Notes: a model not told the origin generated them from the letters alone. A stretch of DNA of 64,000 nt from Thermoplasmata archaeon (GCA_035504395.1 DATJRX010000005.1:3334-67333), one strand, 5' to 3'. Counted from the first letter of the stretch, positions 15,803-54,055 are shown. Translations and numbers: made by a program.

Positions 15803-16207
15803 TCAGGTGACCGGCCCTTCCTGCCACAGCATGAGCAGATTGCCCTCGGGGTCCTGGAAGAACGCCAGCGCGCCGATCCGCTCGAAGGCGATGGGCCCCT
15901 CGGTCCGAAGGGTCATCCCTCCGCGCGGCGCCCGCTGGAACTTGGCTCCCGCGCGACGCAGCTGCTTCACCGCCTTGCGGATGTTCTTCACGACGAACGT
16001 CGAGTACGCGAGGCTCCGCTTCTCCCGCTCCGGGGGCGCGATCAGCCAGACCTCGGCGCCTCCGACGCGGATGTGCGCCCAGGAGTTGCGCATCGCGCCA
16101 GCGCCGCGCGCCCGGAGCTTCGCGCCGAGCGCCTGGGTATAGAATCGGAGAGCCCGGGGGAGTTTCCGGACCGGGATCAACGTCACATGCTCGGACTTGA
16201 ATGCCAT
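15803..16207 (-). CDS. VOC-family protein (glyoxalase/bleomycin-resistance/dioxygenase fold)
   Basis: 134 aa. ATG confirmed at 16205-16207. HVTLIPVRKLPRALRFYTQALGAKL is a typical VOC betaalphabetabetabeta start. Immediately upstream of the hydrolase on the same strand. Confidence 0.7.
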   Translation of the reverse strand: MAFKSEHVTLIPVRKLPRALRFYTQALGAKLRARGAGAMRNSWAHIRVGGAEVWLIAPPEREKRSLAYSTFVVKNIRKAVKQLRRAGAKFQRAPRGGMTLRTEGPIAFERIGALAFFQDPEGNLLMLWQEGPVT

Positions 16208-16478
16208 CGTGTTTCCTCTCACCGAGGTCCCGCGGACCCCCGCGCGCCGGGGACTCTCCCGTACCATATCTAGCTGACCGAGCGCCCCGAGGGTGCGTCG
16301 GTCGTGGCCCGCGACTGGGAAACCCCGGGAGCGGCGATCGAGTCTCGACCGCGGGCCCGACGGGCCGGTACCGCCCGAGCGGGGCGGACGCCCCCGGGAC
16401 CGCGTCAACTCCGATTGACTCCGCGCCTAAGTCGTTCCCGCTCCCATGACCACTGGATGTCGGACAGGGGGGAGAACG

Positions 16479-17126
16479 ATGCAACCGGGAGCGCATCTCG
16501 CCGTGTTCGCCACTGTGCTGGTCGTGCTCGCCTTCATCGTCGGCTCGGCCGTGATGTTCGTGGCCGGCTCGATCCACCCCGGGGCCACGGGACCGCAGGG
16601 CACCGGGGGACAGAACGGCACCGCCGGTGCTAGCGGTGCCAACGGGACCAGCGGGGCTCCCGGCACGAACGGTTCCAACGGGCAGAACGGTACGGACGGT
16701 ACCAATGGCACCACGTGGATCAGCCAATGGTACGGATTCAACGCGAGCTTCCTGCCAACGGGGAACCTCACCTACCTCGCGGTGTCGGTCGAGGGCTGCA
16801 CCGGTGTGGGCAGCGGTGCGTACTACTGCACGGTCAATGTCTCGAACACGTGCGGACCCAAGGACACCGCCCTGATCCAGCCGGCGTGGGCCTGTAAGAA
16901 CTACGAGTTCGCGCTCGTGAACGTCTCCTACGCGATCAACGGGTCGTTCTATTTCGCCGGATCCAACCCCAGCCTCGGGTACGCCCTCGGGTGGGGGCAA
17001 TCCATCGAGATCCAGCTCTGGTTCCAAACGATCGTCTGCGGAGTCTACGCGAGCGGGAGTTCGGCGCCCACGGTACCCACCCTGACTCCGGCCGTCGAGC
17101 TGGGGTTCGCTCAGGTGGCGAACTGA
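16479..17126 (+). CDS. membrane-anchored collagen-like (Gly-X-Y)15 repeat protein with Cys-rich C-terminal domain
   Basis: N-terminal TM (LAVFATVLVVLAFIVGSAVMFVAG), then 15 uninterrupted G-X-Y triplets (GATGPQGTGGQNGTAGASGANGTSGAPGTNGSNGQNGTDGTNGT) carrying N-G-T/S sequons, then a 140-aa Cys-containing domain. Preceded by a G-rich SD (GGGGGGAGAACG). Confidence 0.7.
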   Translation: MQPGAHLAVFATVLVVLAFIVGSAVMFVAGSIHPGATGPQGTGGQNGTAGASGANGTSGAPGTNGSNGQNGTDGTNGTTWISQWYGFNASFLPTGNLTYLAVSVEGCTGVGSGAYYCTVNVSNTCGPKDTALIQPAWACKNYEFALVNVSYAINGSFYFAGSNPSLGYALGWGQSIEIQLWFQTIVCGVYASGSSAPTVPTLTPAVELGFAQVAN

Positions 17127-17207: not shown

Positions 17208-17603
17208 TCAGCGCGGCGTAGGGCGGAAGCGCCTCCGACCGGCCCTGTAGAGACTGATGCGATGGCCGTCGGGGTCCCGCAGATAGGCGTGCTCCCAGCC
17301 CCACGGCATCCGCTTCGGCGGTTGGTCGAGGTGCACCCCGTTCCTGACCAGAGACCGGCAGAGAGCCCTCAGATCGGCGGTCTCGAAGTACAGGACGACC
17401 GGCCGCCGGCCGGCTTGTCGACCGCGCTCGTCGCTCGCGTGGAGCGCGAGGGTGGCGCTGCCCCGAGGTCCTTTCAACCGAGCGTATCCGGGCATCGACT
17501 CGATCTCCTGGAAGCCGAGCCGATCGCGGTAGAATCGGAGCGCGGGCCCGACTTTCCGGACATAGATGATCACGTGATTCAGCGCCGCCCGAGGACCGGC
17601 CAT
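17208..17603 (-). CDS. VOC-family protein (glyoxalase-like)
   Basis: LNHVIIYVRKVGPALRFYRDRLGFQEI...DPDGHRISLY is a VOC fold signature. Confidence 0.7.
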   Translation of the reverse strand: MAGPRAALNHVIIYVRKVGPALRFYRDRLGFQEIESMPGYARLKGPRGSATLALHASDERGRQAGRRPVVLYFETADLRALCRSLVRNGVHLDQPPKRMPWGWEHAYLRDPDGHRISLYRAGRRRFRPTPR

Positions 17604-17728
17604 GCGACCCGGAAGCCCGGCGCGCGTAAAGGCCGGCCCGTCGAAATGATTCGTGGACCTCGCGGTCGGTTCGCGGTGTCAACTGCCGTTGACGCCGGGG
17701 TTAACCTTGGTCGGGTCCAGTCCCCGTC

Positions 17729-18220
17729 ATGGCGCTGATCCGCACGATCGTGGTGGCCGTCGACGGTTCAAAGAACGCGGACCATGCCTTCGAGACCGCG
17801 GTCGAGCTGGCCCGGATGTCCTCGGCGGCGCTCACCATCCTCGGCGTCGCACCTACCCACCGGGACTACACGGGCACCTATGGCGGGGTGCGGGCGTCCG
17901 ACCCCGAAGAACGCCGATGGTTCCGGGAGCTCCTCAGCCGGTACTCCAAGTCCGCCCGGGAGGGTGGGGTCTCGGAGATCTCGACGGAACAGTTCGAGGG
18001 TTCCCCGGTCGACTGCATCGTCACCTACTTGGAAGGCGCGCATCCGGATCTGGTCATCATGGGCGCGCGAGGACTCTCGACCACGCGTCGTCTCTTCCTC
18101 GGGAGCGTGAGCGAAGGCGTGCTCCACCATAGTACGTGCTCGGTCCTCATCGTCCGGTCGCCTCCGCCGAAGCCGGCCCGCGACCCGAAGCCGAGACGGA
18201 CCAAGTCGCCCAAGACCTGA
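17729..18220 (+). CDS. universal stress protein (UspA family)
   Basis: IVVAVDGS...A...A..LA ... DLVIMGARGLSTTRRLFLGSVSEGVLHHSTCSVLIV is the canonical UspA ATP-binding pattern G-x2-G-x9-G(S/T). Confidence 0.85.
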   Translation: MALIRTIVVAVDGSKNADHAFETAVELARMSSAALTILGVAPTHRDYTGTYGGVRASDPEERRWFRELLSRYSKSAREGGVSEISTEQFEGSPVDCIVTYLEGAHPDLVIMGARGLSTTRRLFLGSVSEGVLHHSTCSVLIVRSPPPKPARDPKPRRTKSPKT

Positions 18221-29682: not shown

Positions 29683-30234
29683 CTACGCGTCGGACTCGGG
29701 CGGCTCGTGCGACGGGTGCTCGCCCCGGTCGAACATCGCCATCGCCGCGCGCCGCTTCTCCTCGCGTTCCTTTCGGCTCATCCGGATCGGCATCGAGAGC
29801 GACCAGTGGTGACCGAACGGATCGCGCAGGTGACCGTACCGCTCGCCCCAGAACTGATCCTCGAGGGGCATCGTGACCGTCGCCCCGGCGGCGACCGCGC
29901 GGTTCCAGAGCGTCTCGACGTCGGTCGTGTAGACGTGGAGCGCGACCGTGGTCGTCTCGAGGGTCGACGGGGCCGTGCGGTCCGACCCCTGGAACACGTC
30001 CGAGAGGAACAGCATCGAGTCGCCGATCTTGAGCCGCCCGTGGATCAGCTTGCCGTCCGGCGTCAGCTGTCGGAGCAGCTCTCGGGCGCCGAACGCCTTC
30101 TTGTAGAAGTCCATCGCCGCGGCGCCGCCGACCACCGCGAGATACGGGGTGATCGTGTGGAAGCCGGCCGGGATCCGGGGCTTGGGTTTCGTTCGGCGGC
30201 GGCGCGCGGTGCGAGGCTTCCTGCGAGTGGGCAT
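29683..30234 (-). CDS. VOC-family protein (PhnB/glyoxalase-like)
   Basis: ITPYLAVVGGAAAMDFYKKAFGA...DQFWGERYGHLRDPFGHHWSL is a VOC fold. A basic N-terminal tail precedes it. Confidence 0.7.
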   Translation of the reverse strand: MPTRRKPRTARRRRTKPKPRIPAGFHTITPYLAVVGGAAAMDFYKKAFGARELLRQLTPDGKLIHGRLKIGDSMLFLSDVFQGSDRTAPSTLETTTVALHVYTTDVETLWNRAVAAGATVTMPLEDQFWGERYGHLRDPFGHHWSLSMPIRMSRKEREEKRRAAMAMFDRGEHPSHEPPESDA

Positions 30235-30297: not shown

Positions 30298-30933
30298 TCA
30301 GGGAAGGGAGATCGAGACCTCGCCCGAGTACCCGTCCACCCCGAGCACCTCGAGCGTGTGGCCCTGGCCGAACGGGGAGGTCTTCGTGCTCCCGAACTGG
30401 ATCCAGATCGTGTCCTGGTTGGACACGAGCGAGCTCGCGGTGACCCCGCCGCCGTACCGCTCCCAGGCCGTGGTCTCGAACGCCTTGTTCTTCGCGATCG
30501 TCGAGGAGGCAAGGACCGAGTTCGTCGAGCCCACGAGCGAGATCAGCGCGGAGTTCATGCTGACCGTGTGGACGCGCCCGGTCGAGTCCGTCACCTGGAA
30601 CGCGAGGTTCGAGACCTTGAGCCCGTCCGACGCCTCGTCCACCGGGATGGCGTAGCAGTAGCGGCCCTCGGCGCAGTACGTCGACGGGTGTGCGCTGCCC
30701 GACACCTGCTCGGCCGGGCCGGCGTAGAAGGAGGACTCGAGCGGCTGGGACGCTCCCGAATGGACGTCCCCGACGATGAGCACGTAGAGCACCGCGGCCA
30801 GGACGACGGTGATCGCGACCAGCAGGAGCGTCGCGATGATGGGGGCGACGGCCCGTCCCCGAGCGTGGGGCCGGGCGAGCCCCCCCGATCGGCGGCCTCG
30901 GCGTGGGCGCTCGGCTGCGGCGGTCCCGGTCAT
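30298..30933 (-). CDS. archaeal type IV pilin-like protein (class III signal peptide)
   Basis: ATG confirmed at 30931-30933. RGRAVAPIIATLLLVAITVVLAAVLYVLI matches the archaeal pilin N-terminal motif ((R/K)G-x-S/A-P-V-I...L-x-x-I-T-V). A beta-rich Ser/Thr globular domain follows. Confidence 0.7.
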   Translation of the reverse strand: MTGTAAAERPRRGRRSGGLARPHARGRAVAPIIATLLLVAITVVLAAVLYVLIVGDVHSGASQPLESSFYAGPAEQVSGSAHPSTYCAEGRYCYAIPVDEASDGLKVSNLAFQVTDSTGRVHTVSMNSALISLVGSTNSVLASSTIAKNKAFETTAWERYGGGVTASSLVSNQDTIWIQFGSTKTSPFGQGHTLEVLGVDGYSGEVSISLP

Positions 30934-31022: not shown

Positions 31023-32987
31023 TCAGCCGCTCGAACGCGCCGGACGCACCAGGGGTCGCGTCGGGAGCCCATACTTTCGCAGCAGGTCCACGAACCGCGG
31101 GTCGGTGCGGATCGAGTCGAACGTGGCCGACCGGTAGTAGAGCCACAGCGTCGGATCCCCTTCGCGGTACTCCTTCTCGAGCAGGTCGAGGGCGATCGAT
31201 CCTTCGCCGAGGGCCGCGTGCAGCATCGCGAGGTGGGAGTCCGAGGTGTACGACTGGGTCTCGCCCCGGGCCGCCTCGGCGAGGATCTCGCGGGCGACCT
31301 TGGGCCGGCCGAGCACCGCGTTCAGCATGGCGTGATCGAACCGCTCGTTGTCGTCTGCCGGGGCGATCGCGACGTCGGCTTCGCGCGTCGCCTCGTCGCG
31401 GCGGCCGAGCTCGAGCAGCGTGAGGCCGAGCATCGTGTGCGGGGAGAGCGAGGTGGGTTCCCGCGCGATCCGGGCCCGGCCATGACGAACGCTCGCCTCG
31501 GGGTCGTCGGACGCCGACTCGGCCCACGCGAGGGTCCCCTCGTGCTCGCCGGCCGGGTCCAGGCGTACCGCAAGAGCCAGCTCGGCGCGCGCCTCGGCGA
31601 ACCGCTCGAGGGCGATCAGCATCAGCCCAAAGAACGTGTGCGCGTCGATGTTGCTGGGATTCAGCTCGATCGCCCGGCGGAACTCCCGCTCCGCGGTCGC
31701 CCAGTCATGATCGTACTGCATCGCGATGTTGCCGAGCGCGGCGTGGGCCTCCGCCGAGTCCGGGTCGAGCGCGAGGGCCTTCGCGGCGAGCTCGCGGGCG
31801 CGGGGGATCGCCTCCCGGAACGACAGGTGGTCGCCCGCCGCTCGCACGTAGAGGTTCGCCCACGAGGCGAACGCCTCGGCGAACTTGGGGTCGAGGCGGG
31901 TGGCGGCCTCGAACGAGCGCACCGCCTCGATGTGGTGCGCCGCGTCGAACCCGGACGAGGCGGCGAGTCCACGGAGGTAGAGGTCGTACGCCTCGAGGCT
32001 GGTGGTCGGCGGCCGGCGCGCGCGGGCCGGCTCCGACCGGGCCAGCTGCAATCGAAGCGCCTCGGCGGTCCGTTCGGCGATGTCCGACTGCACCTCGAAG
32101 ACGTCGGTGAGCTCCCGATTGTAGGTCCCGGCCCAGACATGCCGCTGGGTGCTCACGTCGATGAGCTGGAGCGTGATCCGGATCTTCTGTCCGGACTTCC
32201 GGACGCTGCCTTCGAGGACCGTGTCGACCCCGAGCTCCTGGCCGACCTGGGCGATCGACTTCGGCGCGGTCTTGTACGGCAGGATCGACGTCCGGGCGGT
32301 CACGCTGAGGCCCGGCACCTGGGAGAGGACCGCGATCAGCTCCTCCGTCAGCCCGTCGGCGAAGTACTCGTCGTGCGGATCCGGGCTGATGTTGGCGAGC
32401 GGCAGCACCGCGAGCTGGCGCCCCAACGACTCGGCCGCCATCCGACCCTCCTTGCGTACGGCCGCCCACGGGGGGACGACCCGGTACACCCCCATCGGCA
32501 CGCGGATGTTCTTGAGCGCGACGGGCGGCAGCCGGGTGAAGGTCGCCTCGAGCTTGTTCTGGATCTGGTCGTAGACCTGCTGGGTCACGCTGATCCCGCC
32601 CGGCTCGGAGAGCGGTTCCACGCGCGACGCGATGTTGACGGCATCCCCCAGCACGTCGCCGTCCGCCTGCACCACGTCCCCGACATGCAGCCCGATGCGC
32701 ACGAGGATCCGCTCGGAGGCGGGCAGCGCGGCGTTCCGCTCGTGGAGCGCTTTCTGCACGTCGAGCGCGCACTGGCCCGCGTCCAGGGCACTCTCGAACT
32801 CGATGAGGAACGCGTCCCCGACCGTCTTGATCTCGCGTCCGTGGTGGCGGGCGAAGATCGGGCGGAGCAGCGCGTTGTGCGTTTCGAGCGCCGAGAGCGC
32901 GGCGGCCTCGTCGGTCTGGGCGAGAGCCGAGTACCCCACCATGTCCGTGAACATGATGGCAGCCAAGCGGCGGTGCGAAGCGGCCAC
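31023..32987 (-). CDS. class III adenylyl/guanylyl cyclase (CHD) fused to TolB-N-like region and TPR repeats
   Basis: CHD metal-binding Asp residues in AIMFTDMVGYS and KTVGDAFL. Middle region LAVLPLANISPDPHDEYFADGLTEELI. C-terminal TPR-like helices. Start chosen at the GTG 24-30 nt downstream of the TTTATTT element; the ORF extends to 33119. Confidence 0.8.
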   Translation of the reverse strand: MAASHRRLAAIMFTDMVGYSALAQTDEAAALSALETHNALLRPIFARHHGREIKTVGDAFLIEFESALDAGQCALDVQKALHERNAALPASERILVRIGLHVGDVVQADGDVLGDAVNIASRVEPLSEPGGISVTQQVYDQIQNKLEATFTRLPPVALKNIRVPMGVYRVVPPWAAVRKEGRMAAESLGRQLAVLPLANISPDPHDEYFADGLTEELIAVLSQVPGLSVTARTSILPYKTAPKSIAQVGQELGVDTVLEGSVRKSGQKIRITLQLIDVSTQRHVWAGTYNRELTDVFEVQSDIAERTAEALRLQLARSEPARARRPPTTSLEAYDLYLRGLAASSGFDAAHHIEAVRSFEAATRLDPKFAEAFASWANLYVRAAGDHLSFREAIPRARELAAKALALDPDSAEAHAALGNIAMQYDHDWATAEREFRRAIELNPSNIDAHTFFGLMLIALERFAEARAELALAVRLDPAGEHEGTLAWAESASDDPEASVRHGRARIAREPTSLSPHTMLGLTLLELGRRDEATREADVAIAPADDNERFDHAMLNAVLGRPKVAREILAEAARGETQSYTSDSHLAMLHAALGEGSIALDLLEKEYREGDPTLWLYYRSATFDSIRTDPRFVDLLRKYGLPTRPLVRPARSSG

Positions 32988-33006
32988 GATCCCCGGACGG
33001 CGCTCC

Positions 33007-33025
33007 GGCGAAATAAACGCTCGCC
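33007..33025. promoter_or_regulatory. GGCGA-AATAAACGC-TCGCC palindromic TATA-like element between divergent cyclase genes
   Basis: 5-bp inverted arms flank an AT-rich core. It sits 24-30 nt upstream of the candidate GTG start (32987) of the minus-strand cyclase. Confidence 0.4.
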
Positions 33026-33128
33026 GGGATGCTGAAACGGGGCGGGACCCGGCCGTCCGGCCGGCGCGGGCTCCGGTCGCCCGGGGGAGGTCGTCGCCCC
33101 GCGGGAGACGTCGGCGCACGCACGCCTA

Positions 33129-35147
33129 ATGAGGCCGGGTTCGGTCCCCCGATCCGTGGCGCGGGAGTCCCGTCGGCTCGCCGCGATCATGTTCACCGAC
33201 CTCGTGGGGTTCACGTCCCTCGGCCAGCGCAACGAGGGAGAGGCGCTCCGCCTCCGTCGGGAGCATCAGGAGATCGTCCGACCCCTCCTCGCGGCGCACG
33301 GCGGTCGGGAGGTCAAGACGACCGGCGATGGGTTCCTCGTCGAGTTCCCGAGCGCCGTGGAGTCGGTCCGCTGCGCGGTCGAGATCCAGGGCGCCGTCGG
33401 GCGACGGAACGCGCTCGCCGGATCCGCAGAGCCGATCCGGCTCCGCATCGGCATCCACGTGGGCGACGTCGTGGACGACGCCGGCGACATCGTCGGCGAC
33501 GCGGTGAACGTCGCGTCCCGGATCGAACCGCTCGCGGAACCGGGCGGCGTCTGCGTCTCGGGCTCGGTGTACGACCAGGTGCGCAACAAGCTCGAGGTGC
33601 CGCTCGAGCGGGTCGGCACGCGCGAGCTGAAGCACGTGGAGTTCCCGGTCGACATCTACCGGGTCCGGCTCGGCGAGACGTTCGAGCCGCGAGAGCGGGT
33701 CGTCGAGCCGGGACCGGACGCGCGCCCGCGCCTGGCCGTGCTTCCGATGGCCAACTTGAGCCCGGATACCGCGGACGATTACTTCGCGGACGGGCTCACC
33801 GAGGAACTGATCTCCCAGACCTCGAGGATCCCGGACCTCCGCGTCATCGCCCGGACCTCGGTACTGCAGTACAAGGGGTCGACGAAGCCGCTCCGCACCG
33901 TGGCCCACGAGCTCGGCGTGGGGCTCGCGCTCGAGGGGTCGGTGCGCAAGTCCGGCGACCGCCTCCGCGTGACCGTCCAGCTGGTCGACGCGCGCTCCGA
34001 GGAACATCTCTGGTCGTCGCGCTACGACCGGCCGCTCGGCGACATCTTCGCGATCCAGGACGATATCGCGCAGCAGGTCGCCGCCTCGATGGCCGCCCAC
34101 ATGACCGGGCGGGGCGCTGCTCCGGGGCGCCGGGTCCTCCCGGCGGTCCGCGACACGACGGACCTTCGGGCGTACACCGCCTACCTGCACGGCCGCAAGC
34201 TCCTCTCCGAGAAGGATTCGGAGACGACCGTGGCGCGGGCCGTCGAACTGTTCGAGGAAGCGGAGCGCATCGATCCGAATTTCGCGCGCGCCCGCGTCGC
34301 CCGGGCCGAGGCCCTGATGTGGCTCATGAACGAGGGCGCGGTCCCGTTGCTCGACGGCGAGAAGGAGGTGCGCACGGAGCTCGCCCGGGCCATCGAGCTC
34401 GACGCCTCGCTGGCGGAGGCGCACGCCGCGCTCGCCGGCCTCCTCCTCGGGACCGACGAGCTCGCGGCGTCCGAGCGCGAGAGCCGCCGGGCGATGGAGC
34501 TCAACCCGAACGTCATCGACTCGTACCGGTGGCTCGCCCAGATCGCGGCGGGTGATGGGCGCCTGGACGAGGCGGCGCGGCTGCTCGAGACCGCGGTCCA
34601 GATCGACCCCCTCGACATCAACATCCTCGCCTTCCTCGGCCGGATCTACTTCTACGCCGGGCACATCGATCGCGCGCTCGAGCATTGGAAGCGCACGGAG
34701 ACGCTCGTGCCGTACCGGACGCAAGCACACCGGGCGGAGTACGCGCTCTCGATCGGGGACCTCGACGCGGCGCAGACCTACGTCCGCGACCTGGAGCGGC
34801 TGCGACCGGAGAGCGTGTGGACCGAGGTCTACCGCGGGGCGCTCGCGGCCCGCCGCGGCCGTCCGGAGGAGACGCGCGCCGCGATCGAGCGCCTCGAACG
34901 CCGGGGCCAGACGGGCGAGATGACCGCGCTGTTCACCGGCGCGCTCTACCACGCCCTCGGGGAGGACGACGCGTTCGTGCGCTGCATGGAGGAAGCGTTC
35001 GACCAACACTCGTTGCCGTTCCTGGAGCTCCTGTACTCGCCCCTCTACGAGCGCGCCCGCGCCGACCCCCGGATCCGCGCCCTGATCGAGCGCCAGCGGG
35101 CGCTGCGCACGGCCGAGGGGGATACCCCCCCGCGCCGAACGCCTTAA
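33129..35147 (+). CDS. class III adenylyl/guanylyl cyclase-TolB-N-like-TPR protein (paralog of 31023..32987, divergent)
   Basis: AIMFTDLVGFTS, KTTGDGFLVEF and LAVLPMANLSPDTADDYFADGLTEELI, then C-terminal TPRs. About 45% identity to the neighbour across the cyclase domain. Confidence 0.85.
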   Translation: MRPGSVPRSVARESRRLAAIMFTDLVGFTSLGQRNEGEALRLRREHQEIVRPLLAAHGGREVKTTGDGFLVEFPSAVESVRCAVEIQGAVGRRNALAGSAEPIRLRIGIHVGDVVDDAGDIVGDAVNVASRIEPLAEPGGVCVSGSVYDQVRNKLEVPLERVGTRELKHVEFPVDIYRVRLGETFEPRERVVEPGPDARPRLAVLPMANLSPDTADDYFADGLTEELISQTSRIPDLRVIARTSVLQYKGSTKPLRTVAHELGVGLALEGSVRKSGDRLRVTVQLVDARSEEHLWSSRYDRPLGDIFAIQDDIAQQVAASMAAHMTGRGAAPGRRVLPAVRDTTDLRAYTAYLHGRKLLSEKDSETTVARAVELFEEAERIDPNFARARVARAEALMWLMNEGAVPLLDGEKEVRTELARAIELDASLAEAHAALAGLLLGTDELAASERESRRAMELNPNVIDSYRWLAQIAAGDGRLDEAARLLETAVQIDPLDINILAFLGRIYFYAGHIDRALEHWKRTETLVPYRTQAHRAEYALSIGDLDAAQTYVRDLERLRPESVWTEVYRGALAARRGRPEETRAAIERLERRGQTGEMTALFTGALYHALGEDDAFVRCMEEAFDQHSLPFLELLYSPLYERARADPRIRALIERQRALRTAEGDTPPRRTP

Positions 35148-35173: not shown

Positions 35174-35878
35174 ATGTACGGGCGGGGCGAGGGAGGGACC
35201 TTCTCGATCGCGGCGTCGGACGTCGACGCGGGATTCTGGGGCGTCGCGGTCTCCACGATGCCGATCGCCGTCGGGGCGATCGTCCCTTGGGCCGAGTGGA
35301 AGGTCGGGGCCGTTGCGACCCAGGCCGACGCGAACTACTGGCTCGGTCCCCGCGGTCTCGAGCTGCTCCGGGCCGGGCGGTCCGCGGAGGCGACGCTCGC
35401 CCGGCTGCTCCGCGCGGACGCGCGACGGGCCCACCGACAGGTCGGCGTCGTCGACCGGAAGGGTCGGGCGGCGGCCTGGACGGGCGCGAAGTGCATGGAG
35501 AGCGCGACCCACGTCGTCGGCGACGGCTTCACCTGCCAGGGGAACATCGTCGCCAGCGACGAGGTCGTCCGCGCGATGGCCTCGGCGTTCGAGTCGAGCC
35601 GGGGCTCGCTCGCGGCCCGGATGATGAGGGCGCTCCGGGCCGGGGAGCGGAAGGGCGGCGACCGGCGCGGCATCCGATCGGCGGCGATCCTGATCGTGCA
35701 TCGGGAACCCTGGTTCCTGTCGTCGTGGGGGAACCACTGGATCGACCTTCGGGTCGACATGCACGCGCACCCGATCCGGGAGCTCGACCGGATTGTGCGA
35801 TACGACGAAGCGCAGACCGAGAAGTTCCTCCGGTCGAAGATGGCCCGCGACCTTCGTCGCAAGGCCGCGCGACGCTGA
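35174..35878 (+). CDS. DUF1028-family (Ntn-hydrolase-like) protein
   Basis: 234 aa. ATG confirmed at 35174. N-terminal TFSIAASD...GVAVST is typical of DUF1028. Confidence 0.6.
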   Translation: MYGRGEGGTFSIAASDVDAGFWGVAVSTMPIAVGAIVPWAEWKVGAVATQADANYWLGPRGLELLRAGRSAEATLARLLRADARRAHRQVGVVDRKGRAAAWTGAKCMESATHVVGDGFTCQGNIVASDEVVRAMASAFESSRGSLAARMMRALRAGERKGGDRRGIRSAAILIVHREPWFLSSWGNHWIDLRVDMHAHPIRELDRIVRYDEAQTEKFLRSKMARDLRRKAARR

Positions 35879-39134: not shown

Positions 39135-39509
39135 TCAGAAGAACTCGATCCAGTTATTGTCGGGGTCGAGCACGTAGTAGACCCCCCGCACCCCGTGGGC
39201 GTCTTCGGGGGCGAGGGCCGGGCGCGCGCCGCCCCGCAGCAGGCGTCGGTAGGCCGCCCGCGGATTCGTCACATGGAACCCGATGTGGTCGAGGCCATCT
39301 CCGGGAGCGAACGGGGTCGCGAAGGGGTGGTCCGGCGGGTACCAGTTCAACTCGAGCCGCTGGCGGGTCCGCGGATCCTCGAGCAGGACCCAGTATCCCC
39401 CGTGATGCATCCGGCCCCGTCGCGCTTCCTTGAGCCCGAGGAGCTCCGAGTAGAACCGAACCGAACGCCCGAGGTCCGTGACCCGAATGCCGACGTATCG
39501 AAGTCCCAT
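39135..39509 (-). CDS. VOC-family protein (glyoxalase-like)
   Basis: YVGIRVTDLGRSVRFYSELLGL ... HIGFHV ... DPDNNWIEF. Confidence 0.75.
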   Translation of the reverse strand: MGLRYVGIRVTDLGRSVRFYSELLGLKEARRGRMHHGGYWVLLEDPRTRQRLELNWYPPDHPFATPFAPGDGLDHIGFHVTNPRAAYRRLLRGGARPALAPEDAHGVRGVYYVLDPDNNWIEFF

Positions 39510-49057: not shown

Positions 49058-49636
49058 CTAGCGGCCCCGCCCGACGTCGATCGTCTCGTCGACCAGGAGG
49101 TTCAGCATCTGCTCGATCCCCGTCGCCTCCTCGTCCGAGGTCTCGAGGACGACCGCGAGCACGTTGCGGCTCTTCAGGTTCGTCAGGAAGATGTGGAAGA
49201 ACTCGTTGAGGAGGTCGACCGGGTTGTGAATCGCGAGGGCGTTCACGCTGTCGATCACCACGATCGAGCGGGGGTGCGGGAACTTCCGCAGCAGGTAGTC
49301 GACCCGCAGCATGATCTCCTCGAGCGCCCGCGGGGTCTCGATGTACGTCGAGTTCGGGAGCGGGTTCGAGTAGTTCATCATGATGTGGCTGATCGCGTCG
49401 ACGAACGAGATCCGGTCCGCCGGCACGTCGAGCGCCTGCGCGAGCGACCAGACGAACGCGGCCGGGTTCGTCACGGTGACGTAGATCGTGTGCGCGTTGG
49501 TCTCGCTGCCGACGTCCCGCAACGTCGCGTTCAGGACCGCGAAGTAGTGGTCCGCGTACTCGCGGGGATCCAGCTTGAGCGCGACCGCGCTCCCGCCGGG
49601 CAACGACCGCAGCCGGTCCCCGATGTCCGCCGGCAT
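49058..49636 (-). CDS. KaiC-like RecA-superfamily protein lacking the P-loop
   Basis: Aligns with the neighbouring KaiC-like genes (IYVTVTNPAAF...ADRISFVDAIS...IVVIDSVNALAI), but the Walker A segment is replaced by LDPREYADHY. Confidence 0.55.
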   Translation of the reverse strand: MPADIGDRLRSLPGGSAVALKLDPREYADHYFAVLNATLRDVGSETNAHTIYVTVTNPAAFVWSLAQALDVPADRISFVDAISHIMMNYSNPLPNSTYIETPRALEEIMLRVDYLLRKFPHPRSIVVIDSVNALAIHNPVDLLNEFFHIFLTNLKSRNVLAVVLETSDEEATGIEQMLNLLVDETIDVGRGR

Positions 49637-49645
49637 CGAGCGACC

Positions 49646-50449
49646 CTACTCCTCCGGGTTCTGGCCCTTGAGGTGCGGCGCCATCAACATCCCGATCGGC
49701 GTCAGCTCGATGACGTACTGGGCCCGCGAGTGCGTCGTCCCGCGCATCTTCACGATCTGGAGCACGCGCAGGATGTCGCCCTGCCGCCGGGTGTTCCAGA
49801 GGAGGATCACGCCGTCGACGATCGCTTCCTCGACCCCGTGGAGCGAGTAGCGGCCGGCCTGCGGTCCGATCTCCGACACGAGGAGCGAGGTGCAGCCGAG
49901 CTCGGTCAGCGTCTGGCCGAGGCGGAGCATGAAGTCCCGGATCCGCTCGTCCCGACGGATCCGGTAGCAGACCGACGTCAGCGAGTCGAGGACGAGCCGC
50001 TTCACGCCGAGCGAGGCGACCAGGTCCCGGATCGTCCGGATCAGGATGTCGATCTCGTCGGCCGTGAGCTCCTCGTGCTCGAGGCCGAGCTTGTCGTAGA
50101 TCGCGGGGAGATCGACGAACACGAGCGAGCCGATGTCGATCAGGTCCCGCCGGAAGAACTCGAACGTCGAGAGGTTCTGGATCAGCTTCGCGGACGCCTC
50201 GGTCACGGAGAGGAAGAGCGAACGCTCCCCCCGTTCCGCGCCGCGGACCAGGAACTCGAGGCTCAGCGTCGTTTTCCCCGTCCCGACCGACCCGGCGACC
50301 AGGACCATGTTCCCGCGCGGGATCCCGCCGCCCAGCACGTTGTCGAGGCCCTCGATGCCGGTGGCGCAGCGCTCCAGCACCGCGGCCGGCGCGAGCAGCG
50401 GCCGGGGGGGACCGTCGGGCGGGGCGGCCGTCTCCGGCGGAGCCTCCAT
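49646..50449 (-). CDS. KaiC-like RecA-superfamily ATPase with intact Walker A/B
   Basis: TGIEGLDNVLGGGIPRGNMVLVAGSVGTGKTTLSLEF (Walker A) and RLVLDSLTSV (Walker B). Internal M (MEAPPET) taken as the start; the ORF extends to 50620. Confidence 0.8.
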   Translation of the reverse strand: MEAPPETAAPPDGPPRPLLAPAAVLERCATGIEGLDNVLGGGIPRGNMVLVAGSVGTGKTTLSLEFLVRGAERGERSLFLSVTEASAKLIQNLSTFEFFRRDLIDIGSLVFVDLPAIYDKLGLEHEELTADEIDILIRTIRDLVASLGVKRLVLDSLTSVCYRIRRDERIRDFMLRLGQTLTELGCTSLLVSEIGPQAGRYSLHGVEEAIVDGVILLWNTRRQGDILRVLQIVKMRGTTHSRAQYVIELTPIGMLMAPHLKGQNPEE

Positions 50450-50489
50450 CGAGAAAACGAGCGAGCCCGAGCCTAAGAGCGTATCGTTT

Positions 50490-52940
50490 CTATCCGCGGT
50501 CGGGACCGTCGTCCGACCGCCCCTCCGCCCCCGGCTCCGGGGGCCCGACGAGGCGCGCGGGATCGATCCACCAGCACGCGCCCCGCGCGTCGCGACCGGT
50601 CGAGAGGAGCGCCCCTTCACGGCGGAGCGCGTCGCCCGTCGCCCGCACCGCCGCGCCGGTCGGGTCGACCTCGTGGCGCAGCTCGGCCAGCGAGATCTTC
50701 AGCGGACGGTCCCGCGGAGCCGCGCGCGCGCGCTCCGCGAGGGCTCGCCGCACGCGATCCTCGGGCGCGTCCGCCGACGCGGCGGAGCCGGGGGCCAGGA
50801 CGCCAGGGTCGGCCGCCGCCGTCGCGCCGGGGGATGGGGCCGGAGCGGGGGGCCCACCCGCCGGAGCCGGTCGGCGGGCGGTGCGGAGTCGGAGGACCTC
50901 CTGTCCCTTCCCGAGCAGAACCACGGCCTCTCCGCGGGGCAACGACACGAGGGCTCCCGGCTCGGCCCCCCGGACCGAACGCGCGAGCTCGCGCGCCTCC
51001 CCGGGGGAACCCCGGAACGCGACGAAGTCCGCGACGTTCGTCCAGATCGCCTCGGCGACGCCCTCCGGCAGCGATCCGATCGACTGCGTGGCGAGCACGA
51101 CGTGCACGTTGCGACGGCGGGCGAGGCGCAGCATTTCGGCGAGGCTCTCGTGACCGAACCACTGCGCTTCGTCGAGCACGACCCAGGTCTTCGGGGTCCC
51201 GGGGCGTGCCAGCAGCTCGTTCCAGACCAGGGCGAGGTACACCGACATGAGGTAGCGCGCGGTCGACTCTCCGACGTCGCGCGCGTCTCCGGCGATCAGG
51301 ACGACCCGGCCCTCACCGACCAGGTCCTCGGCCCAGAGCTCAGGGGACCGCGCGCACAGCATGCGAACGAGCGTGGGGCTGCGGACCACCTCGTGGAGGA
51401 GGCGCCGGGCGCCATCGGCGTCCTCGGGACGGTGTCGGATGCGGTCGGCGAGCTCCCGAACGGCCTCCATCGCCTCGGGCGGCACTCCGCGAGTTCCGCG
51501 GCCCTCGGCGGCGAGCAGCGCGTGCGCGTCGACGAGCGTTCCGTCGGGCATCGCCGCCGCCGCCCGAAGGGCCCTCGTCAGCATCTCGTCGAGGCGGGGT
51601 CCCCAGAACGCCCCGCTGGAATACCGGCCTTCCCGCACGAGGCGCAGGGCGTGCACCAGGTCGTTGACCTGGCGCTCGGCCCGGCCTCCGTCCGCGGCGT
51701 CGCGGACCAACGAGCGGCCGAGCGCGTTCAGCCCCCCCACCGACCGAGTGTCGATCCAGGTCAGCCGGTCCCGCGCGGCCGGGGGGAGGTCGTCCCGCAC
51801 GGCCCGCGCGGTCTCCCCGAGCGGGTCGAGCAGCACCAGGCCTCCCCGGCTCGCGGCTCGCCGGGCGAGCACGACGAGCAGGGAACTCTTGCCCATCCCC
51901 GTCTCCCCCACGATCGCCAGGTGCCGACCCTGGTGAGGCTCGGAGGGAGCGCGCACGATCTGGCCGTCCGAGGTCCGCCCGAGCGGAAGGCCGTCGGCCT
52001 CGGAGAGGTCGGCGCCGAGTCCGGGGCATCGATCCGTGGGGAACGTCGCGAGCAGGTCGACCTCGGGAAGGGGGAACGCCGGACCTCGGCGGCCATGCCA
52101 GGGTCGGAATCGGGAGAACCGGAGCCCGTTCCCTTCGGCGGTCCGGGTGGCCGACTCCCAGGAGCGCGCGGAGGCCCGGAGCTCGAGCGGGGACCGCGCC
52201 GGGTCGGTGCGCCGAAGCCGAAGCCGGCTCTCCCACACCGGGCGCAGGTCCGGCGCCGGCTCGGGCCGGGCCATCGACGGGCGGGGGATCGGGCGGGTCC
52301 CGGGCGGCAGCGTTCGGTGATCGATCGAACCGACCGGTTCCGGTCTCGACGGGCTGGCCGCCAGCCGCGTCGGCCGGCTCGACCACGCGAGCTCGAGTCC
52401 CGGCGGCAGGAGCGACGCCTGCTGCACGACGGCGTCCATCAGCGCGACGACCCCGGCCGACCGGCCGATCAGCGGCTCGGGCCAGGCGCGGGCAGGGGTC
52501 GCGAACCACTCCCACGGACCCGGCGCATCCCGCTCACCTGACGGCGCCGGTTTCCACTGGCCGGGGGGATACACCGGCAGCAGCACCCGGATCCACCATC
52601 GGGCGGCCGCGGCGTCGCCGGGCCGGAAGGTGAGGCCGGCGGGTCGGCCGGACCGGATCCTCCACTCGAACGAGACCCCCGCCCCGTGCGCGGCCCGAAC
52701 GGCGAGCGCGAGCTCCCGCGGATACGGTTCGCGGTCCGACGGCCGGCGATCGTCCGAGGGCAGCGATCGGAACCGCCAGGCCGGGACCGATGTCGTGCGA
52801 GGACCGGTGTCCGGGTCCACGCCGCTCGCTGACGGCCGGCTCGAAGAATCCGTCGGGGTGGGCGGACGGTGAAGCGTGCCCATCGCCACCCTCAAGTGGC
52901 CGCCCGCGTGGGACCGGCTTCGGGTCCGGTCGCATGTCAT
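50490..52940 (-). CDS. HerA/FtsK-like (DUF87) P-loop ATPase with long N-terminal extension
   Basis: HLAIVGETGMGKSS (Walker A), LLDPLGE (HerA DPxGE motif), VVLDEAQWF (Walker B) and VLATQS (sensor). Coordinates are the maximal ORF. The true start must be internal, because the first ATG would overlap the divergent DRG gene; candidates are M168 at 52439 and M223 at 52274. Confidence 0.65.
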   Translation of the reverse strand: MTCDRTRSRSHAGGHLRVAMGTLHRPPTPTDSSSRPSASGVDPDTGPRTTSVPAWRFRSLPSDDRRPSDREPYPRELALAVRAAHGAGVSFEWRIRSGRPAGLTFRPGDAAAARWWIRVLLPVYPPGQWKPAPSGERDAPGPWEWFATPARAWPEPLIGRSAGVVALMDAVVQQASLLPPGLELAWSSRPTRLAASPSRPEPVGSIDHRTLPPGTRPIPRPSMARPEPAPDLRPVWESRLRLRRTDPARSPLELRASARSWESATRTAEGNGLRFSRFRPWHGRRGPAFPLPEVDLLATFPTDRCPGLGADLSEADGLPLGRTSDGQIVRAPSEPHQGRHLAIVGETGMGKSSLLVVLARRAASRGGLVLLDPLGETARAVRDDLPPAARDRLTWIDTRSVGGLNALGRSLVRDAADGGRAERQVNDLVHALRLVREGRYSSGAFWGPRLDEMLTRALRAAAAMPDGTLVDAHALLAAEGRGTRGVPPEAMEAVRELADRIRHRPEDADGARRLLHEVVRSPTLVRMLCARSPELWAEDLVGEGRVVLIAGDARDVGESTARYLMSVYLALVWNELLARPGTPKTWVVLDEAQWFGHESLAEMLRLARRRNVHVVLATQSIGSLPEGVAEAIWTNVADFVAFRGSPGEARELARSVRGAEPGALVSLPRGEAVVLLGKGQEVLRLRTARRPAPAGGPPAPAPSPGATAAADPGVLAPGSAASADAPEDRVRRALAERARAAPRDRPLKISLAELRHEVDPTGAAVRATGDALRREGALLSTGRDARGACWWIDPARLVGPPEPGAEGRSDDGPDRG

Positions 52941-54055
52941 CGCTCGAAGAGCAGATCACCGCGGTCGAGGACGAGATCCGGAACACCGCGTACAACAAGG
53001 CGACCAGCGGCCACATCGGGCGGCTCAAGGCGAAGCTCGCGGTGCTCCGCCTCGAGCGCGAGACCCGGGCGAAGGGGAAGGGCGGTGGGGTCGGCTACGG
53101 CGTCCGGAAGAGCGGCCACGCCACGGTCGGGCTCGTCGGGTACCCGTCGGTCGGAAAGTCGACGTTGCTCAACCGGTTGACCGCGGCGGAGAGCGAGACC
53201 GGGGCCTACGACTTCACGACGGTCTCGATCATTCCCGGGATGCTCCGCTGGGGCGGAGCCTCGATCCAGATCCTCGACATGCCCGGGCTCGTGCCGGGGG
53301 CGGCCAAGGGACGTGGTCGCGGGCGGGAGGTGCTGTCGGTCGTGCGCTCGGTCGACCTGATCCTGTTCATGATCGACCCGGAGCACACCAACCTGCGCGC
53401 CCTGGTCACGGAACTCGAGGGGGCCGGGGTCCGCATCAACGGGCGACCGCCCAAGATCGTCGTGACGAAGGCGGATCGGGGCGGGCTCACGATCTCGAGC
53501 ACCGTTCGGCTCACGCATCTCGCCGGCGGGCTCGCGAGCCAGATCGCCCGGGAGTTCGGGATGCACAACGGCTCGATCGTGTTCCGCGAGGACGCGACGG
53601 CCGACCAGCTCATCGACGTCCTCGCCGGGAATCGCGTCTACGTGCCGGCGTTGCTCTCGGTCAACAAGAGCGAGCTCCTGACGCCCGCCGACCGGGCGCG
53701 CATGGTGCTGGAGCAGCGACCCTTCGATCCGATCTTCGTCTCGGCGCGGGACCGGCTCGGCCTGGACGCGCTGGTCGACCGCATCGGCCACGCGCTGCGC
53801 TTCATCCGGGTGTACGTCAAGCCGCCCGGGCTGCCGCCCGACAAGGACGAGCCGGTGATCCTTCGGGAAGGGGACACGATCCAGTCGCTGCTCGGGCGGC
53901 TCCCCACGGACCTCGATCGGGGGTTCCGAACCGCGCTCGTGTGGGGGAAGAGCGCCCGATTCCCGGGTCAGACCGTCGGTCGGGAGCACGTCCTCGCGGA
54001 CGAGGACATCGTCACGATCATCATCGCGCGCGGGGCGGCCCGCGCAGCGGTCTAA
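52934..54055 (+). CDS. developmentally regulated GTP-binding protein (DRG/Rbg1-family Obg-like GTPase with TGS domain)
   Basis: N-terminal [38 protein letters not shown]. G1 [9 protein letters not shown], G3 DMPG, G4 TKAD. C-terminal TGS ([10 protein letters not shown]...GDTI). Confidence 0.9.
   Translation: [373 protein letters not shown]

Follow-up and report, generated by a model that had tools for sequence, protein, structure and literature searches.

The locus of interest is a head-to-head pair of genes in a 64,000-nt stretch of a Thermoplasmata archaeon genome (GCA_035504395.1, DATJRX010000005.1:3334-67333). This whole stretch is referred to below as the window, and all positions are counted from its first letter. 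We consider it likely that the pair encodes two soluble class III (IIIc-like) adenylyl cyclases, that these are anciently diverged paralogues of a family long established in soil archaea, and that they came to lie side by side through a rearrangement specific to the window's lineage, rather than as a functional unit. An earlier, sequence-only reading of the window had recognised a pair of cyclase genes of bacterial type, and had proposed (i) horizontal acquisition followed by duplication, and (ii) co-regulation through a palindromic element in a shared promoter region. The pair and its domain order are borne out by the analysis below; the proposed history and mode of regulation are not.

Two divergent cyclase genes in the window

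The two open reading frames (ORFs)—hereafter the minus gene and the plus gene, after the strands that encode them (Table 1)—specify proteins that are 44% identical over 500 aa (E 6e-117). The head-to-head pair of paralogous cyclase–tetratricopeptide repeat (TPR) genes is thus present where the sequence-only reading had placed it, and the identical arrangement is found on an independent 40-kb ENA contig. No third cyclase copy was found in the 64-kb window. Scans of the window for tRNAs and Rfam families gave zero matches, and hence supply no taxonomic anchor.

Alignment with 20 relatives shows that proteins of the family start 4–5 residues ahead of the strand RRLAAIMFTD. The N-terminus of the minus protein ('VAASHRRLAAIMFTD') fits the N-termini of the family, and the most likely start of the minus gene is GTG 32987 (654 aa), the codon from which the gene is also called on the ENA contig. 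The longest ORF of the plus gene begins at ATG 33129, which is overlapped by a TATA-like box. Because of where the family N-termini begin relative to the conserved strand, the start of the plus gene is most likely GTG 33156 (663 aa) and not ATG 33129. With the gene starts revised in this way, the spacer measures 168 bp instead of the roughly 140 bp first ascribed to a shared promoter region.

Domain architecture and fold

Both proteins have the domain order originally described: a cyclase homology domain (CHD), a TolB-N-like module, and TPR repeats. The CHDs match the Pfam family Guanylate_cyc (PF00211) with 69 and 61 bits (cut-off 21.9), and the TPR_11, TPR_17, TPR_2 and TPR_19 families all exceed their Pfam cut-offs. 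A full-length AlphaFold2 (AF2) model of the plus protein (predicted local distance difference test score, pLDDT, 83) consists of three units with disordered linkers between them: the cyclase domain (residues 14–180), an alpha/beta domain (200–328), and a stretch of ~19 helices (346–665; pLDDT mostly >85). When compared with sequences in the PDB, the plus cyclase domain matches 3mr7 (E 4.5e-37); the nearest solved cyclases by sequence are 3mr7, Ma1120, Rv1900c and Rv1264, at 31–40% identity. The modelled cyclase domain superposes on 3mr7, Rv1900c and Ma1120 with template-modelling (TM) scores of 0.87–0.91 and root-mean-square deviations (rmsd) of 1.6–2.3.

The middle module, which carries the motifs LAVLP(L/M)AN and YFADGLTEELI, was also modelled alone (pLDDT 86). 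Foldseek matches this model to the N-domain of TolB with a probability of 1.0 (TM 0.65–0.68, rmsd 2.6–3.3), and further to GNA1162, LpoB, PelC and the periplasmic domain of CadC. The label 'TolB-N-like' is therefore right for the fold, though the Pfam TolB_N model (PF04052/COG5616) matches neither window protein. Sequence-profile matches to related families are weak: the module of the minus protein matches Pfam LpoB with E 0.007, under the cut-off, and the NCBIfam models CadC and HilA match over the TolB-N-like domain and the first TPRs without attaining their family cut-offs. A TolB_N Pfam match was found in one distant relative of 2837 aa, and some homologues are named 'TolB-like protein' by JGI.

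Neither protein contains a hydrophobic segment (the maximum 19-residue hydropathy is 1.2), and for this reason the whole protein is predicted to be cytoplasmic, in contrast to the envelope proteins of bacteria in which the fold of the middle module recurs.

Several metagenomic relatives (P0131, P0140, P0160, P0129/P0130 and P0121) carry a TolB-N-like plus TPR module that is at most 57% identical to that of the window proteins. In these relatives the module is fused, variously, to a GAF domain, an AAA_16 ATPase, a KaiC-like ATPase plus cyclase, or two cyclase domains. By this comparison, the TolB-N-like plus TPR unit appears to be a mobile module. The 2837-aa protein alone holds eight stretches that match the query, and two relatives of the plus protein (P0002 and P0003; 60–61% identity) are nearly double its length, at 1129–1132 aa, with additional TPR-type Pfam matches.

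Catalytic residues and predicted activity

Six residues of the cyclase domain are invariant in an alignment of 22 relatives: D24 (in FTD), K63, D67 (in GDGF), D120, N127 and R131 (both in GDAVNVASR). We take D24 and D67 to bind the metals, K63 and D120 to recognise adenine, and N127 and R131 to stabilise the transition state. Judged by the C1/C2 motifs of mammalian adenylyl cyclases, their spacing (N at +7 and R at +11 from D120, and K at −4 from the second Asp) is canonical for class III adenylyl cyclases. All six residues are found in 81–82 of the 82 archaeal-labelled members: K63 and D120 in every one, and each of D24, D67, N127 and R131 in either 81 or 82. K63 and D120 align with the K and D of Ma1120, for which a 'KDA to EGY' mutant is among the PDB entries. 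The metal-binding aspartates noted previously are thus in place rather than misaligned, and the specificity pair is Lys/Asp, not Glu/Cys.

Given this near-complete conservation of catalytic and adenine-specifying residues, both proteins are predicted to be active adenylyl cyclases, each working as a homodimer with two complete active sites. In the mechanism that we envisage, (i) the protein would dimerise through its N-terminal cyclase domain, (ii) ATP would be converted to 3',5'-cyclic AMP (cAMP) at two symmetric active sites, and (iii) the C-terminal TolB-N-like plus TPR unit would tune the dimer as a regulatory or partner-binding module. H110 and D120 are just 10 residues apart, and Rv1900c, Ma1120 and Rv1264 rank as the best matches in the PDB; this may correspond to the shortened beta4–beta5 arm and the kinship with IIIc enzymes that mark the IIIc subclass, and the label 'IIIc-like' is used here tentatively.

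The cyclase domains might, hypothetically, do something other than make cAMP, whether as pyrimidine cyclases in anti-phage defence (Pycsar), as guanylyl cyclases, or as scaffolds without activity. Weak PADLOC matches to PycC (~30–32 bits) fit the first of these. However, any cyclase homology domain would yield PycC similarity of this order, and the genes adjacent to the pair are a pilin-like gene and DUF1028 in place of the typical Pycsar effector gene. Because the PycC matches are weak and the pocket is of the purine type, a Pycsar role appears unlikely. Across all three variants, the purine-specifying Lys/Asp pair is conserved along with the full set of catalytic residues, and the best structure and sequence matches are bona fide adenylyl cyclases; we regard activities other than cAMP synthesis as very improbable.

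Distribution and phylogeny of the family

Relatives were sought in one genome per GTDB species. At least 589 were found, and the best 80 were examined. Of these, 74 are archaeal-labelled (Thermoplasmata, Nitrososphaerales/Thaumarchaeota, Bathyarchaeota and Conexivisphaerales) and six are bacterial-labelled; some of the archaeal relatives lie on contigs of 1–2.3 Mb, and several genomes have 2–4 loci. Each window protein has orthologues of its own. The plus protein is related at 57–66% identity to more than 120 clusters (formed at 90% identity), and all taxon-named clusters are Thermoplasmata; the minus protein has orthologues at loci L061, L058 and L067 (60–64% identity). The wider family is large, with 36,337 clusters in a 50%-identity library at E≤1e-30. 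Labelling of the 150 closest representatives from the 50%-identity library by BLAST showed that most are only 45–55% identical to any labelled sequence, and of ten distant cluster representatives one is taxon-named (Nitrososphaerota). The same architecture is also found on bacterial plasmids, as the comparison with alphaproteobacterial domain order had anticipated: 608 plasmid records match, mostly from Rhizobium and Sinorhizobium, at 32–38% identity with coverage of up to 99%.

A neighbour-joining tree was built from 95 full-length sequences (641 columns, 100 bootstraps, simple distance correction). It sets the rhizobial and Binatia/Chthoniobacterales sequences apart from a clan (84% support) that comprises 86 sequences and is archaeal save for four bacterial-labelled contigs. 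The clade of the plus gene comprises eight Thermoplasmata sequences and that of the minus gene has four members, both with 100% support, and the two belong to different larger clades (85% and 98% support). Clades of Thermoplasmata and Nitrososphaerales are interleaved in the tree, a pattern suggestive of gene exchange between soil archaea or of a degree of binning error. Among the contigs L055, L060, L076 and L044 (labelled Anaerolineales, Acidiferrales), L055 and L060 carry family genes nested in archaeal clades; their upstream regions are of the archaeal type, with TATA geometry, so that these two are probably misbinned archaeal contigs. Pfam scans of the genes flanking the L044 and L060 loci found no domain-specific markers.

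These results bear directly on the proposal of a recent horizontal transfer that brought in a bacterial-type cyclase gene, followed by its duplication on the spot into the divergent pair. Three observations are in keeping with a bacterial source: the architecture is abundant in bacteria (the plasmid records and the wide family above), the tree places Binatia, Chthoniobacterales and rhizobial sequences outside the archaeal clan, and the TolB-N-like fold finds its structural relatives among envelope proteins of bacteria. Yet the two paralogues are a mere 44% identical to each other, compared with 57–66% to their own Thermoplasmata orthologues, and they sit in different supported clades. The locus shows no GC anomaly (0.71, equal to its flanks). 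The promoters are of the archaeal TATA type, whereas bacterial members carry Shine-Dalgarno sites, and synteny at L058 (both described below) indicates juxtaposition rather than tandem duplication. The well-populated archaeal clade recovered here runs counter to recent transfer, which we consider a very unlikely origin of the pair. Separate orthologues, different clades, flank-like GC and lineage-specific adjacency instead argue that the duplication is old, without sign of recent transfer; this is part of the explanation that we hold to be likely. An ancient bacterial origin of the archaeal clan as a whole is plausible.

Promoters and the AATAAA element

The AATAAA element that had been singled out in the spacer does exist (33010–33019), as does the inverted repeat around it, with perfect 7-nt arms and a 9-nt loop. 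The repeat, however, does not stand out from its surroundings: two repeats of at least 7 nt are observed in the GC-rich spacer, against a mean of 2.1 after shuffling. Its downstream arm is unconserved in orthologues. Read on the opposite strand, the element is TTTATTT, the predicted TATA box of the minus gene, while the plus gene has a candidate box of its own. The palindrome was consequently rejected as a shared operator: it is at chance level, unconserved, and coincides with the TATA box.

Comparison across the family is consistent with this assignment. The minus-type orthologues L058, L061 and L067 have TTTAAT, TTAATTT and TTAACTT, respectively, at the same distance from the start, and the plus-type orthologues L002–L008 have ccTTAA(T/C) ~25–30 nt upstream of the start codon. 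Across 73 archaeal members, AT content peaks at −28 to −24 from the start codon (0.66–0.89, against a background of ~0.35), and a T[TA]A[AT] box occurs at this position in 61 of the 73, compared with 3–6 in control windows. True bacterial members (L074, L078 and rhizobia) have Shine-Dalgarno sequences in place of the TATA geometry. Each gene of the pair would thus have its own archaeal TATA promoter, the two standing back to back ~110 bp apart. The transcripts are probably leaderless, because the TATA box lies only ~30 nt upstream of the GTG start.

Adjacency of the two genes

Among the loci compared, a divergent cyclase pair is found only in the window and in L013, where the two genes belong to other subfamilies. 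No divergent partner is present at plus-type orthologous loci for which at least 5.5 kb of upstream sequence is available. In L058, a DUF1028 gene that is 71% identical to the one in the window directly adjoins the minus-type orthologue; this arrangement indicates that the plus gene intervenes between the minus-type gene and DUF1028 only in the window's lineage. The adjacency is therefore best taken as a lineage-specific rearrangement and not as a functional unit, at the same level of confidence as the explanation to which it belongs.

A functional unit would be expected if the two proteins formed an obligate heterodimeric cyclase, like mammalian C1/C2, co-regulated through the palindrome in the shared spacer. 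The genes do lie side by side in divergent orientation, class III cyclases work in dimeric form, and L013 provides a second divergent cyclase pair. Several findings make this arrangement very improbable: both proteins carry a full catalytic set, such that homodimers suffice; the orthologues of each gene occur without the partner; the L013 pair comes from other subfamilies; and the palindrome is the chance-level, unconserved repeat at the TATA box described above.

Runs of two or three family cyclase genes in tandem are also seen, both in archaea (Bathyarchaeota, Nitrososphaerales and Thermoplasmata; L048, L050, L019, L031 and L042) and in bacteria. This points to repeated local duplication.

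Candidate cAMP-binding proteins and the weight of the evidence

A search for cyclic nucleotide monophosphate (cNMP)-binding effectors, which the sequence-only reading had recommended, came up empty in the 64-kb window; they are encoded in related Thermoplasmata genomes, in two cases beside a family cyclase. These two cases are L011 (5362–5853, minus strand) and L070 (5358–5819, minus strand), both Thermoplasmata loci, in which a stand-alone PF00027 protein (E 9e-22 and 7e-20, respectively) with the canonical FGE...RTA cassette is encoded immediately upstream of, and divergently from, a family cyclase. The cNMP-binding protein forms at least 120 clusters at 52–82% identity, mostly of 144 aa, and all organism-named ones are Thermoplasmata. 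In the near-complete Lutacidiplasmatales genome SubAcS15-31, a single 655-kb contig carries both a cNMP-binding gene of this kind and a family cyclase, ~20–30 kb apart. A general adjacency of cNMP-binding and cyclase genes was rejected as a rule, with two adjacent against four non-adjacent cases.

Two further arrangements were seen around these small genes. In the Thermoplasmata loci L089 (5001–7286) and L091 (5001–7103), an AMP-binding (acyl-CoA synthetase-like) gene, whose product is a candidate partner, comes ~60–130 bp after the 144-aa cNMP-binding gene in the same orientation, and L088 has two cNMP-binding genes in tandem.

Our explanation of the locus—two soluble adenylyl cyclase paralogues from an old soil-archaeal family—has to be weighed against a number of points that tell in the other direction. 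Firstly, the tree is a neighbour-joining tree with sparse bacterial sampling (13 sequences) and poorly supported deep nodes inside the clan. Secondly, the regulatory role given to the TolB-N-like/TPR unit is deduced purely from architecture. Thirdly, certain class III domains with full catalytic sets are inactive on their own. Finally, no cNMP-binding gene was found in the 64-kb window, and four other cNMP-binding copies have no cyclase within 5 kb. Taking these together with the evidence of the preceding sections, we still judge the explanation likely.

Host and genomic neighbourhood

The host is an archaeon, as supposed from the outset. The window and the ENA contig carry genes for ribosomal protein L15e, prefoldin, RIO1 and an archaeal Pilin_N protein, and they also encode Nop, P0/L10 with insertion domain, a 60S acidic protein, L1, aIF2-alpha, PAC2 and KaiC-like ATPases; it is these marker genes that identify the host. 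GC content is ~0.71 throughout, with neither a dip nor a rise at the cyclase locus. The order Lutacidiplasmatales has been described as ~69% GC (PMC9287336), and the high GC content of the window and its acid-soil relatives fit this order.

An assembly or binning artefact, in which a bacterial fragment was wrongly joined to archaeal sequence, is suggested by the fact that most family members come from metagenome bins and that some bacterial-labelled contigs (L055 and L060) appear to be misassigned. Against this, archaeal markers flank the locus on both sides in the 64-kb window, with an archaeal pilin gene immediately adjacent; the independent 40-kb contig has the identical arrangement; and family members are found on the megabase-scale archaeal contigs noted above. 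We judge such an artefact to be exceedingly unlikely, more so than any of the other alternatives.

The coordinates of the pair and of its features are collected in Table 1.

Table 1. Positions in the window of the two cyclase genes, their predicted domains, and elements of the spacer between them.
Feature	Position	Strand	Details
Minus cyclase gene	31023..32987	-	654 aa; GTG start 32987; stop codon included; ORF call
TPR-like region, minus protein	31050..31997 (approximate)	-	Pfam TPR families; NCBIfam TPR_END_plus, residues 586-636
TolB-N-like domain, minus protein	32034..32420 (approximate)	-	Aligned to plus module; LpoB Pfam match weak
Class III cyclase homology domain, minus protein	32511..32963	-	PF00211, E 5e-19; residues 53-203 of 698-aa ORF; motifs FTD, KTVGD, GDVLGDAVNIASR
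Inverted repeat CCGGCGA / TCGCCGG around minus TATA box	33005..33027		Arms 33005-33011 / 33021-33027; judged incidental
Predicted TATA box TTTATTT, minus gene (the AATAAA element)	33011..33017	-	30 nt upstream of GTG 32987
Predicted TATA-like box TAATGA, plus gene	33127..33132	+	29 nt upstream of GTG 33156
Plus cyclase gene	33156..35147	+	663 aa; probable GTG start 33156; ORF call
Class III cyclase homology domain, plus protein	33177..33632	+	PF00211, E 1e-16
TolB-N-like alpha/beta domain, plus protein	33726..34112	+	Residues ~200-328 in 672-aa numbering; AF2 and Foldseek
TPR-like all-helical region, plus protein	34164..35123	+	~19 helices; conserved C-terminal cap; Pfam TPR families

The pair is flanked on one side by the DUF1028 gene (35174–35878, plus strand), which begins 27 bp past the plus cyclase gene on the same strand and could be co-transcribed with it. 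On the other side, directly downstream of the minus cyclase gene, lies the archaeal pilin-like gene (30298–30933, minus strand), with a Pilin_N domain and a class III signal peptide motif. Elsewhere in the 64-kb window there are four genes of the glyoxalase/VOC family (15803–16426, 17208–17678, 29683–30234 and 39135–39509) and a universal stress protein gene (17705–18220). An ORF at 16431–17126 (plus strand) matches collagen-like repeats (Pfam Collagen, E 6.5e-7), perhaps only because a GC-rich frame yields low-complexity sequence. At 49058–50698 and 50490–52955 (both minus strand), where the ORF calls overlap, a pair of neighbouring KaiC-like ATPase ORFs stands beside a large HerA/AAA-type ATPase ORF.

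Comparison with known systems

The closest counterparts of the window proteins in overall architecture are soluble rhizobial cyclases, such as WP_037380981.1 (Sinorhizobium americanum plasmid A) and WP_064994087.1 (Mesorhizobium pWSM1497). They have the same order of CHD, TolB-N-like and TPR units and a similar length (~580–635 aa), are 32–38% identical over 80–99% of the protein, and likewise occur as adjacent paralogues. They differ in being bacterial, often plasmid-borne, preceded by Shine-Dalgarno sites, and placed outside the archaeal clan. To our knowledge, no CHD/TolB-N-like/TPR protein of exactly this architecture has been biochemically characterised.

Among solved cyclases, 3MR7 (Ruegeria/Silicibacter pomeroyi), Rv1900c/LipJ, Ma1120 and Rv1264 share the catalytic motifs and the short loop between HxGD and the specificity Asp. 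Their partner domains are different: LipJ has an alpha/beta hydrolase and Rv1264 a pH-sensing domain, and none has the TolB-N-like/TPR module. A comparable module is found in the sensor regions of CadC (periplasmic) and HilA, in which a TolB-N-like alpha/beta subdomain is likewise followed by helical repeats (Foldseek matches CadC 3ly7/3ly8). There, however, the module is joined to a DNA-binding winged helix as its output, and that of CadC is periplasmic, whereas the module of the window proteins is cyclase-fused and predicted to be cytoplasmic; the family scores are far under the cut-offs. Finally, the multidomain mycobacterial cyclases typified by Rv0386 (cyclase, ATPase, TPR, LuxR) are also soluble proteins with an N-terminal class III cyclase followed by TPRs, but they contain an NB-ARC/AAA ATPase as well as a DNA-binding domain, and have no TolB-N-like domain.

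Implications for cAMP signalling in soil archaea

Taken as a genome feature, the pair is unremarkable: automatic annotation already names the genes as adenylate cyclases, and bacteria commonly have proteins of this architecture. A survey of archaeal class III cyclases reportedly appeared as early as 2004. Our literature search turned up no work on cyclases of Lutacidiplasmatales or Gagatemarchaeaceae and none that characterises the CHD–TolB-N–TPR architecture; publications on the soil lineages concerned are silent on cyclases.

The wider family is of more consequence. Archaea have been shown by measurement to contain cAMP. By the account of a 2023 review (PMC10249747), the CYTH 'class IV' candidates of archaea proved to be non-cyclases, and not one archaeal protein for the synthesis, breakdown or binding of 3',5'-cAMP has yet been characterised. 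We tentatively propose, at a little under an even chance, that at least three soil-archaeal phyla (Thermoplasmatota including Lutacidiplasmatales, Nitrososphaerota and Bathyarchaeia) share an expanded set of canonical class III adenylyl cyclases that has been exchanged between phyla, and that in Thermoplasmata these are accompanied by the 144-aa cNMP-binding proteins. If true, this would amount to a complete archaeal system of cAMP writers and readers, and would provide the first plausible enzymes behind archaeal cAMP. A large, conserved archaeal cyclase family together with small cNMP-binding proteins offers a concrete set of candidates with which cAMP signalling could be tested in soil archaea that are still uncultured.

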